Source: Alphaproteobacteria bacterium (GTDB lineage: Bacteria; Pseudomonadota; Alphaproteobacteria; CAAGCB01; CAG-977). From it: DNA of 64,000 nucleotides. Below the pieces are notes generated by a model. It had not been told where the DNA came from, did not search any database, and saw nothing but the letters and a program-made list of their open reading frames with translations. Of this stretch, positions 6,586-8,139 are shown in pieces. The stretch's first letter is position 1, and every line of letters begins with the position of its first letter. The stretch is from positions 11,794-75,793 of the forward strand of contig CAAGCY010000024.1 in assembly GCA_900768465.1 (NCBI GenBank), read 5' to 3'. Position numbers and translations under genes: made by a program.

Positions 6586-6618
6586 ATCAGCCTCTTTTTA
6601 ATATTTTTTTACGAAAGC

Positions 6619-6630
6619 AAGTGTACACTT
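6619..6630. promoter_or_regulatory. Perfect 12-bp palindrome AAGTGTACACTT in the divergent intergenic region, about 48 bp upstream of the Panacea-domain gene
   Basis: The sequence is its own reverse complement. Candidate operator. Confidence 0.35.
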
Positions 6631-6677
6631 CAAATTCAGTATACGTTCTTTTTATACGAATTTCAGGAAAAATTCAA

Positions 6678-7208
6678 ATGGAAATACCTCCTTTGCCGTC
6701 CGTATTCGACGCCGCCGAATGGTTTTTGGATACCGCGCTGAACGACGGCGAATATCTGCAGCCGATGAAAATGCAGTATTTGATGTATCTGACCCAAGGG
6801 TACTACGCCGCCGTTTCCAACTCAAAACGCTTTATTCCCGCCGTTTTTCTGGCGACGCCGCGCGGTCCCGTCGAACCGAATTCCTATCGCGTTTACGCGT
6901 CGGCGCGTCCTATCGTCGAATACCGGTCTTTGGATAAAAAAACAGTTTCCTTTCTGGAAACGATTTGGCGCAGATTCGGCGCGTATTCGGCGGATTGGCT
7001 GTATAAAACGATTTGTGGACATGCGCCTTACGCCCGAGCGTTCGCGGCAGGGGAAAATTCGGAAATCGACATCACGGACATGGGCGGCTTTTATTCCGGA
7101 AAAAGCGAAGATTTCCGCCAAGCTTCCGAACTTTCGGGCTTGCGCGTTCTGCGAACGGGAACGGGCAAAACGGTTGCCGTAAAAAAATGGATTCCGACAA
7201 ATAAATAA
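6678..7208 (+). CDS. Panacea-domain (DUF4065, SocA/GepA-like) protein; putative antitoxin or phage-associated protein
   Basis: Start taken as MEIPPLP (ATG at 6678); the ORF track opens earlier at 6621. The core AEWFL....LQPMKMQYLMYLTQGYY....F..W..GPV.P.VY and ...DW.Y.TICGHAPYARA matches the conserved Panacea-domain pattern (KLQKLLYY...W..GPV...PW). Confidence 0.65.
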   Translation: MEIPPLPSVFDAAEWFLDTALNDGEYLQPMKMQYLMYLTQGYYAAVSNSKRFIPAVFLATPRGPVEPNSYRVYASARPIVEYRSLDKKTVSFLETIWRRFGAYSADWLYKTICGHAPYARAFAAGENSEIDITDMGGFYSGKSEDFRQASELSGLRVLRTGTGKTVAVKKWIPTNK

Positions 7209-7269
7209 AGGGATTTTTAATCTCTTTTCCATTACAATAAGCCAATTATAACTCGAATTGGAGCCGATT

Positions 7270-8139
7270 ATGCAGGATTTGGAATTACGCGTTCAAACGT
7301 TGGAAAAAAAATGCCGGGCGTTGAAACAATACGTTGTCGGTTTGACGTGTTGCGCCGTTTTGGCGGCAATGTCGGGAGCCGTGTCGCTGAACCGTTCGGC
7401 AAAAGCCGACGCCGGCGACGAAATCAATCCGAAAGACATCGGCATCCCCGCCGTTGTCGAAGCGCAGGTCTTCATGCTGAAAGATGCCGCAGGCAACATC
7501 CGCGGGATATGGAACGCCGACGACGCAACGACTTCGTTTGCCATGATGCACAAAGGCAAATTCCCCATTATCGCCATGGCGGTTGACAACAAAAACGCGT
7601 CCATGTCCCTGACCGACGTGTACAAAGGCAAAATCAATATCGGGTTAAGCAACTCCATCCGTTCGATGTCGGTCACGGACGACACGGGCAAAAACAATAT
7701 TTATCTGGGATTGACGGGAACGGGCGAAGCATCCATCGACATGGTCAGCACGGGCGATTCGTCCGTGGTCATCGACGGCAAAACATCCAGCATCGATATG
7801 ACGGGCGATCGCGCCGTTCTGGCAATGACGGAAACGGTCGGCTCGACGGCGGCTTTGCAAGCTCAGCCCGGCAGTAGCGCTTTGACGTTTATGGATCACG
7901 CCAACACCAAAACGCTGGACATCACCACGATTGACGGAAAAACGACGGTTTACATGAATTCGCCCGCAACAAAGGAAAACAAGACCTTGACGACCGCGGT
8001 TGAAGTTTTGAACGTTTCCCCCGCCGCTCAGAAAAACGAAGAGCAAAACGGGGAAGCCGCCGCTCAGCCCGCCGAAAACAAGCCGAACGAACAGTCTGCC
8101 GCCGCGGATTTGAAAAACTACTCGCCGTTCGGGAAATAA
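7270..8139 (+). CDS. Hypothetical membrane-anchored protein (about 290 aa) with a coiled-coil N-terminus, one TM helix and a Ser/Thr/Gly/Asp-rich, beta-rich extracytoplasmic domain
   Basis: A ggag RBS lies upstream of the ATG at 7270; the ORF track begins at 7258. N-terminal heptad-like segment LELRVQTLEKKCRALKQ, then TM helix VVGLTCCAVLAAMSGAVSL. No family recognised. It lies 62 bp downstream of the Panacea-domain gene on the same strand. Confidence 0.5.
   Translation: MQDLELRVQTLEKKCRALKQYVVGLTCCAVLAAMSGAVSLNRSAKADAGDEINPKDIGIPAVVEAQVFMLKDAAGNIRGIWNADDATTSFAMMHKGKFPIIAMAVDNKNASMSLTDVYKGKINIGLSNSIRSMSVTDDTGKNNIYLGLTGTGEASIDMVSTGDSSVVIDGKTSSIDMTGDRAVLAMTETVGSTAALQAQPGSSALTFMDHANTKTLDITTIDGKTTVYMNSPATKENKTLTTAVEVLNVSPAAQKNEEQNGEAAAQPAENKPNEQSAAADLKNYSPFGK

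Follow-up and report, generated by a model that had tools for sequence, protein, structure and literature searches.

A conserved gene pair for a divergent Panacea-superfamily protein and a predicted exported protein in gut and rumen Alphaproteobacteria: vertically inherited and probably not a toxin–antitoxin pair

The locus described here lies in a 64,000-nucleotide stretch of contig CAAGCY010000024.1 from an Alphaproteobacteria bacterium, which as a whole is referred to as the window, and centers on two co-directional genes, here called A and B. Gene A (6678–7208, plus strand) encodes a soluble protein of 176 amino acids with a Panacea/SocA-like fold, assigned through profiles, relatives, and a fold match, and gene B (7270–8139, plus strand) encodes a protein of 289 amino acids from an unnamed family, characterized through its alignment, a structure model, and hydropathy. 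The start codon of gene A is an ATG preceded by AGGAAA, at a position shared by 26 of 27 aligned homologues; gene B starts with the ATG at 7270 behind GGAG, 61 nt past the stop codon of A. An intrinsic terminator-like hairpin with a T-run (8146–8176, plus strand) follows directly after B, 10 nt before the start codon of a DUF192 gene (8187–8648, plus strand; 153 amino acids; Pfam DUF192, E 1.8e-31) whose product has a signal peptide, and a tRNA-Pro gene (8665–8741) follows the DUF192 gene. On the other side, a 92-bp intergenic region (6586–6677) separates A from a divergently transcribed gene for a YdbH-like (AsmA-family) envelope protein (3481–6585, minus strand; 1034 amino acids; Pfam YdbH-like, E 1.6e-30), beyond which a gene for a MobA-like NTP-transferase (1791–3470, minus strand; 559 amino acids; Pfam NTP_transf_3, E 1.7e-31) is the leftmost of the conserved block. 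The intergenic region contains a perfect 12-bp palindrome, AAGTGTACACTT (6619–6630), 47 nt from the ATG of A. A preliminary description of this locus had placed both genes and the palindrome correctly, together with their features, and had offered two interpretations: a PanA–PanT toxin–antitoxin pair under an autoregulatory operator, or a stand-alone phage-associated gene A.

The product of gene A is supported as a divergent Panacea-superfamily protein, itself below the Pfam threshold, by its relatives, a PHROG match, BLAST, and fold comparison. A search with the Panacea profile PF13274 (DUF4065) matched residues 35–113 at 19.7 bits (E 0.0016), short of the gathering score of 25.7 bits, and the NCBIfam SocA equivalog NF047745 matched only residues 13–75 at 22 bits, far from its cut-off of 190 bits. 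PF13274 is matched by 22 of the 27 members of the A family, with a best E of 5.2e-7, and two relatives of A (P0126 and P0133) carry the NCBI name "Panacea domain-containing protein". Gene A also matches phrog_1281 (E 2.6e-15, residues 8–144), and residues 6–139 are, by tblastn, 30% identical to a Pseudomonas phage-plasmid protein annotated in RefSeq with a SocA antitoxin domain. The superfamily homology noticed in the preliminary description holds, although a "conserved core" was an overstatement for a protein that scores below the gathering threshold. The AlphaFold2 model of A is confident (predicted local distance difference test, pLDDT, 84) and aligns in BFVD with phage proteins about 150 amino acids long, at TM-scores of 0.62–0.77; a fold search of the PDB with this model gave no match, and a sequence-profile search of the PDB found no relative of A or B. 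No transmembrane segment, signal peptide, helix-turn-helix, or other DNA-binding domain was found in A. The protein also has no N-terminal extension, the Panacea-like core beginning at about residue 8, so that A is of the "noNTD" type of Kurata et al. (PMC8832971). The C-terminal tail of A (about residues 140–176), with the motif RVxRxxxGKxVxVKKWxP, is conserved in sequence and is modelled with low confidence.

Pfam, NCBIfam, PADLOC, and PHROGs returned nothing meaningful for gene B, which the preliminary description had likewise left unrecognised, and Pfam contained no domain for 10 distant relatives of B either. When 1.84 billion representative proteins were searched by profile, 67 relatives were retrieved, of which 16 lie below E 1e-10; like B, the distant members have the N-terminal motif, a hydrophobic segment, and beta-hairpin repeats. 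The layout of the protein is as it had been described, with an N-terminal helix (residues 2–33), a single hydrophobic segment (residues 22–40, Kyte–Doolittle score 2.06), and beta-rich blocks. The N-terminus contains a conserved charged motif, M-x-x-L-E-x-R-x-x-x-L-E-K-K (LExRxxxLEKK), and there is more positive charge on the N-terminal side of the hydrophobic segment. The beta-rich blocks (residues 66–148 and 182–241) are antiparallel strands arranged as a beta-meander with many invariant Asp, Gly, and Thr residues, and an invariant Y-S-P-F (residues 284–287) at the C-terminus follows a variable low-complexity linker. An AxA motif stands straight after the hydrophobic segment, in which Ala44 is nearly invariant and Ala46 is invariant, and it may be cut by signal peptidase, in which case the conserved n-region before it would be unusually long. 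As B combines one hydrophobic segment with the beta blocks, the bulk of the protein would be extracytoplasmic, either anchored through the segment or, if the AxA motif is cut, released to the periplasm. Neither an in-register lipobox nor a twin-arginine consensus could be read from the alignments, and B was dismissed as a candidate lipoprotein or Tat substrate.

The ectodomain of the AlphaFold2 model of B consists of consecutive antiparallel hairpins, as in OspA-like single-layer beta-sheet proteins. OspA variants are also the best PDB matches of the model, but these matches are not significant (E of about 1e-2, TM-scores of at most 0.3), the mean pLDDT of the model is 62, and there is no sequence similarity between OspA and B. 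The N-terminal helix of B was also considered as an interface specific for A, and this was rejected, since LExRxxxLE(K/R) is equally conserved in P0153, which has no adjacent A. The motif is conserved as well in distant relatives of undetermined context, such as P0164; another distant B-like protein, P0158, lies on a contig too short to inform on its context.

Scanning of the GTDB species genomes with an alignment of A found the gene in 172 species, and 80 loci were kept (loci are given below as L numbers). The A subfamily is therefore represented in no fewer than 172 species of Alphaproteobacteria, for the most part Rhodospirillales and their uncultured relatives. The order MobA-like (minus strand), YdbH-like (minus strand), A, B, DUF192 is found in 21 of the 21 GTDB loci in which A is at least 51% identical, all from uncultured gut or rumen Alphaproteobacteria (the gut clade), and also in L002–L004. 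A metagenome scan with an alignment of B yielded 18 loci, all of the gut clade; A is present in 16 of the 16 with an upstream flank, and DUF192 in all with a downstream flank. Farther away, the order A–B–DUF192 is found in L089 (A at 34% identity, 1 nt from B) and in L093–L095 (A at 32% identity, with an 8-nt overlap into B), while L092 retains A–B and L096 retains A–B without DUF192. The YdbH-like gene is kept beside A in the gut clade, in L093–L095, and in L096. In total, A and B are adjacent in all gut-clade loci with flanking sequence and in five of the seven lineages with B, four of them beyond the gut clade, and the conserved adjacency that is one mark of PanAT loci (PMC8832971) is thus found here. 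The preliminary description had made its pairing depend on whether homologues of B mostly lie beside a Panacea gene, and this is indeed the case.

In the gut clade, A and B form a genuine bicistronic unit, because the hairpin behind B is conserved while its stems vary. The plus strand has no terminator-like site between A and B, and a hairpin with a T-run lies directly 3' of B in 18 of 19 gut-clade species (at the equivalents in L009–L027), its stems differing between species with the pairing retained. The DUF192 gene starts 10–25 nt past the T-run in this clade, and its expression would require read-through or a promoter inside B. Distant AT-rich lineages have no such hairpin, and there B and DUF192 abut or overlap. 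Across 43 loci, the gap between A and B has a median of 91 nt (range 1–220) and is at most 100 nt in 29, and the 61 nt of the window lie within the limit of 100 nt applied to PanAT loci (PMC8832971). The co-directional trio A–B–DUF192 is conserved with the terminator after B; the conservation spans five genes, two of them on the other strand, a pattern that is probably one of synteny and not of a long operon.

The pair is vertically inherited under purifying selection, without patchiness. The pairwise-identity matrices of 20 species correlate at r = 0.92 for A and MobA, 0.92 for B and MobA, and 0.90 for A and B; synonymous divergence (dS) against three close species is similar for A, B, and their neighbors; and the ratio of nonsynonymous to synonymous divergence (dN/dS) against these species is 0.08–0.16 for A and 0.11–0.19 for B. 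The mobility and patchiness reported for PanAT loci, and a PanA tree at odds with taxonomy (PMC8832971), are thus not found for A–B. No relatives of B were found in IMG/VR viral contigs, INPHARED/GenBank phages, or PLSDB plasmids, and only distant relatives of A, at 26–30% identity, were found in IMG/VR, INPHARED phages, and PLSDB plasmids; PADLOC gave no match for the locus. Among the entries listed in the supplement of Kurata et al. (PMC8832971), only other Rhodospirillales Panacea paralogues appear (clusters T1, T10, and T12).

A strain-variable island (about 8893–21728) of low G+C content (33–47%) begins past tRNA-Pro, 0.7 kb downstream of the cluster, between direct repeats of about 100 bp (8786–8892 and 21729–21882). 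It contains genes for a DNA methylase, a GmrSD-type restriction enzyme, and a Fic/DOC protein, and phage remnants (a terminase gpA nuclease domain, a lambda-type portal, and an S49 protease). The conspecific contig L101, 99% identical, is free of the island and collinear through A–B–DUF192, and since the cluster is intact there, the pair is not cargo of the island.

A and B are also phyletically independent. In 59 species loci (L030–L088), gene A is found but B is not; these loci are mostly from Rhodospirillales, have A at 39–51% identity, and include Thalassospira, Oleispirillum, Rhodospirillum, and Magnetospirillaceae among their taxa, and a widened hidden Markov model of B found no divergent B near A in these loci. 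In 40 of the 59, a different gene of 135–150 codons, here called U, lies directly upstream of A (7428–7874 in L079, for instance); U likewise precedes A in L001 (5505–5909), L005 (5452–5898), and L008 (5559–5972). The U protein has conserved N- and C-terminal motifs and, as read from the sequences, appears largely low-complexity; Pfam contains no family for it, and there is no such upstream partner in the window. As U is conserved before A in 40 loci, this Panacea subfamily has in U–A another conserved two-gene order besides A–B. One lineage (L006, 4574–6549; L007, 146–1552) has a flagellar rod-like gene (Flg_bb_rod) between the two, a possible pointer to a connection with motility genes.

Conversely, two lineages have B–DUF192 with no A beside it: in L090 and L091 beside HU and LapA genes (L090, 1000–2186), and in L097–L099 behind SppA and near MurJ, PBP1A, and an alpha-2-macroglobulin gene (L097, 4232–7247). 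The stretches searched for A around these pairs were 2 kb long for L090 and L091 and 12.7 kb for L097–L099, and A could lie elsewhere in the genomes. Within the fetched stretches, the rule for type II systems that a toxin does not occur without its antitoxin is therefore broken by B in two lineages. DUF192 adjoins B in the gut clade, L089, L090/L091, L093–L095, and L097–L099, and as it does so across lineages even where A is missing, it is the most constant neighbor of B.

The region between the divergent genes bears on the regulation that had been proposed for A. Perfect 12-bp palindromes number 23 in the window, where its length alone would predict about 16, and a 6 + 6 palindrome is reached in 4.6% of shuffles of the 92-bp region. 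Of the species compared, only the closest (L009) retains the palindrome upstream of A; L010 carries a different, imperfect dyad, CGGAATATACTCCG, at the same position, and the orthologous regions of 19 other species contain palindromes at chance level only. In a 12-species alignment, the palindrome falls into a variable spacer between two invariant T-rich boxes (about 6603–6616 and 6650–6660), the second of which, TTTTAT..GAA, is followed by the ribosome-binding site. The two boxes could be the -10 regions of the divergent promoters; they seem to covary by sub-clade, with TTTACGAAA and TATACGAAT in the group of the window and TTATCAGATAA and TTATCTGAAT in the group of L012. The palindrome itself has most likely arisen by chance in the variable spacer that separates the two divergent promoters. 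An autoregulatory operator, as put forward in the preliminary description, is thus not supported, because the palindrome is unconserved and marginal (p of about 0.05) and A has no DNA-binding extension; the combination of operator and DNA-binding antitoxin expected of a type II system is not found here. A CtrA-like TTAA-N7-TTAC upstream of the palindrome, noticed by eye, is not conserved in L009 or L010 and was set aside.

Several known systems can be compared with the locus. SocA–SocB of Caulobacter is a type VI toxin–antitoxin system in which SocA acts as the ClpXP adaptor for SocB. Like SocA, the product of A is a chromosomal alphaproteobacterial Panacea-fold protein, and by analogy SocA might serve as a model for an adaptor-type role of A. 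The resemblance does not extend to the equivalog level, where A reaches 22 bits of the 190 needed, nor to the partner: B matches no NCBIfam model and hence not SocB, and it is predicted to be exported or membrane-bound, in contrast to SocB, a cytoplasmic clamp-binding toxin. YdbH–YnbE–YdbL of E. coli is an envelope system for AsmA-family intermembrane lipid transport. The two loci share an envelope context in which a YdbH-like gene (PF11739) lies beside genes for small exported proteins, but at the present locus the genes diverge instead of forming a single operon, neither B nor DUF192 shows a sequence relationship to YnbE or YdbL, and B–DUF192 is also found away from YdbH-like genes, so that a functional link of A–B–DUF192 to a YdbH-type system is speculative. 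With the PanA–PanT pairs (Kurata et al. 2022, PMC8832971), the locus shares a "noNTD" Panacea protein encoded first, a short gap to a co-directional partner of no recognized family that is conserved across species, and partners that differ within one clade of PanA; some of the validated partners act on membranes. It differs from them in that A–B is inherited vertically within a fixed syntenic block and is not mobile, in that A falls below the Pfam threshold, and in that B, at 289 amino acids, has a large conserved extracytoplasmic domain and a constant DUF192 neighbor and occurs without A.

The fixed synteny, the independence of A and B, the DUF192 partner, the large ectodomain of B, and the N-terminal motif that B shares with a relative lacking an adjacent A and with more distant relatives together suggest an envelope operon with a domesticated Panacea component. 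We hold it somewhat more probable than the contrary that A–B is a vertically inherited, envelope-associated bicistronic operon of the chromosome and not a mobile toxin–antitoxin or addiction module; judged from sequence, A and B are probably not a toxin–antitoxin pair at all. Under this interpretation, B would be exported or anchored through its N-terminal hydrophobic segment, placing its beta-rich domain in the periplasm, where it would most likely work with the signal-peptide protein DUF192, and the cluster would belong to the envelope-gene setting in which it lies, beside the YdbH-like AsmA-family protein. The product of A would remain in the cytoplasm and, by analogy with PanA and SocA, which bind partner proteins, would most likely be a binding or adaptor factor; its targets might include the precursor of B, the cytoplasmic N-terminus of B, or another client. 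A more specific version, which we consider improbable, would have A as a domesticated Panacea-fold adaptor or chaperone of the SocA kind, through which B is regulated in its production, export, or turnover, with B, as a member of a new family of exported beta-meander proteins, and DUF192 as periplasmic partners of the YdbH-like lipid-transport protein.

Several points weigh against an envelope operon and have to be set beside the alternatives. The adjacency of A and B persists down to 32–34% identity of A, and the overlap in L093–L095 and the 1-nt gap in L089 would fit a tight co-production of the toxin–antitoxin kind. The loci with B and without A are short (2–13 kb), and A could be elsewhere in those genomes; SocAB provides a chromosomal precedent for a Panacea-type toxin–antitoxin system; the two alternative partners of the A family, U upstream and B downstream, resemble the partner swapping of Panacea proteins. 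The roles of B, DUF192, and the A subfamily are inferred, and a literature search on DUF192 yielded nothing functional. Membrane-acting PanT toxins also exist (PMC8832971). Much of this would suit a PanA–PanT type II pair fixed in the chromosome, in which B is a new, large membrane-anchored toxin neutralized by A through binding to its N-terminal helix or to the unexported precursor, and such a pair would further agree with the superfamily of A, the antitoxin-first order, the nominal presence of the features by which PanAT loci are recognized, and the validated membrane-depolarizing PanTs, one of which has an N-terminal coiled coil (PMC8832971). Of the pair proposed in the preliminary description, the Panacea protein and the conserved two-gene unit stand, but the toxin–antitoxin reading fares poorly, and we regard it as unlikely. 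The pair is strictly vertical within a fixed five-gene synteny and absent from phages and plasmids, whereas the PanA phylogeny is reported to be mobile; B occurs with DUF192 and no adjacent A in two lineages; its N-terminal motif, being equally conserved in P0153, is not an interface specific for A; the greater part of B, about 240 amino acids, is a conserved extracytoplasmic domain with a conserved C-terminal motif, unlike the small transmembrane-peptide PanTs (PMC8832971); and there is neither a conserved operator, nor a DNA-binding domain in A, nor a single PADLOC match.

Some of the evidence against a toxin would also suit co-transcribed neighbors with no direct functional tie, an old Panacea gene of the MobA/YdbH locus behind which a separate B–DUF192 envelope pair landed in some lineages. 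Several Rhodospirillales loci with A and without B retain a MobA-like or AsmA/YdbH-like gene upstream and DUF192 about 6 kb downstream, B–DUF192 is found without A, and the correlation between A and B falls to about 0.3 once the MobA signal is removed. This explanation is possible yet doubtful, in view of the conserved terminator that follows B and not A, and of an adjacency held in five deeply divergent lineages, two of them with overlapping or nearly touching genes; chance neighbors would rarely persist over such distances. Hardly credible, finally, is the alternative of the preliminary description that A is a stand-alone phage-associated gene carried as prophage cargo, even with the match to phrog_1281, the 30% identity to Pseudomonas phage proteins, and a prophage-remnant island nearby. 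Gene A is not part of the island, which begins on its left side at about 8893, past tRNA-Pro, and A is present in the island-free L101; it is syntenic with housekeeping-type neighbors in every species examined, and its family is absent from viral contigs save for one relative at 26% identity.

What is new here is the unnamed B family, of exported beta-rich proteins as far as can be predicted, with DUF192 as its constant neighbor, and a Panacea subfamily of vertical descent that is found with either of two conserved partners. Around half of the DUF4065 proteins are known to lie outside loci of the toxin–antitoxin type. Panacea proteins have mostly been discussed as mobile, promiscuous antitoxins, whereas this subfamily behaves as an ordinary, vertically inherited chromosomal gene, and neither of its partners, U or B, resembles a classical toxin; the locus thus advises caution with toxin–antitoxin calls made from a Panacea gene and a small neighboring gene. 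Should A prove to be a domesticated adaptor, the locus would provide the first functional context for DUF192 and the B family, and it would mean that a "universal antitoxin" domain has housekeeping uses. DUF192 is widespread, and B–DUF192 is a concrete gene pair for envelope biology, although the practical impact is modest as the hosts are uncultured gut and rumen bacteria. As a minor observation, L009 (CAVCSV010000013.1) is titled Limosilactobacillus gorillae, yet it carries the MobA, YdbH-like, A, B, and DUF192 genes at 83–87% nucleotide identity to the window, and this bin is probably mislabelled or contaminated.

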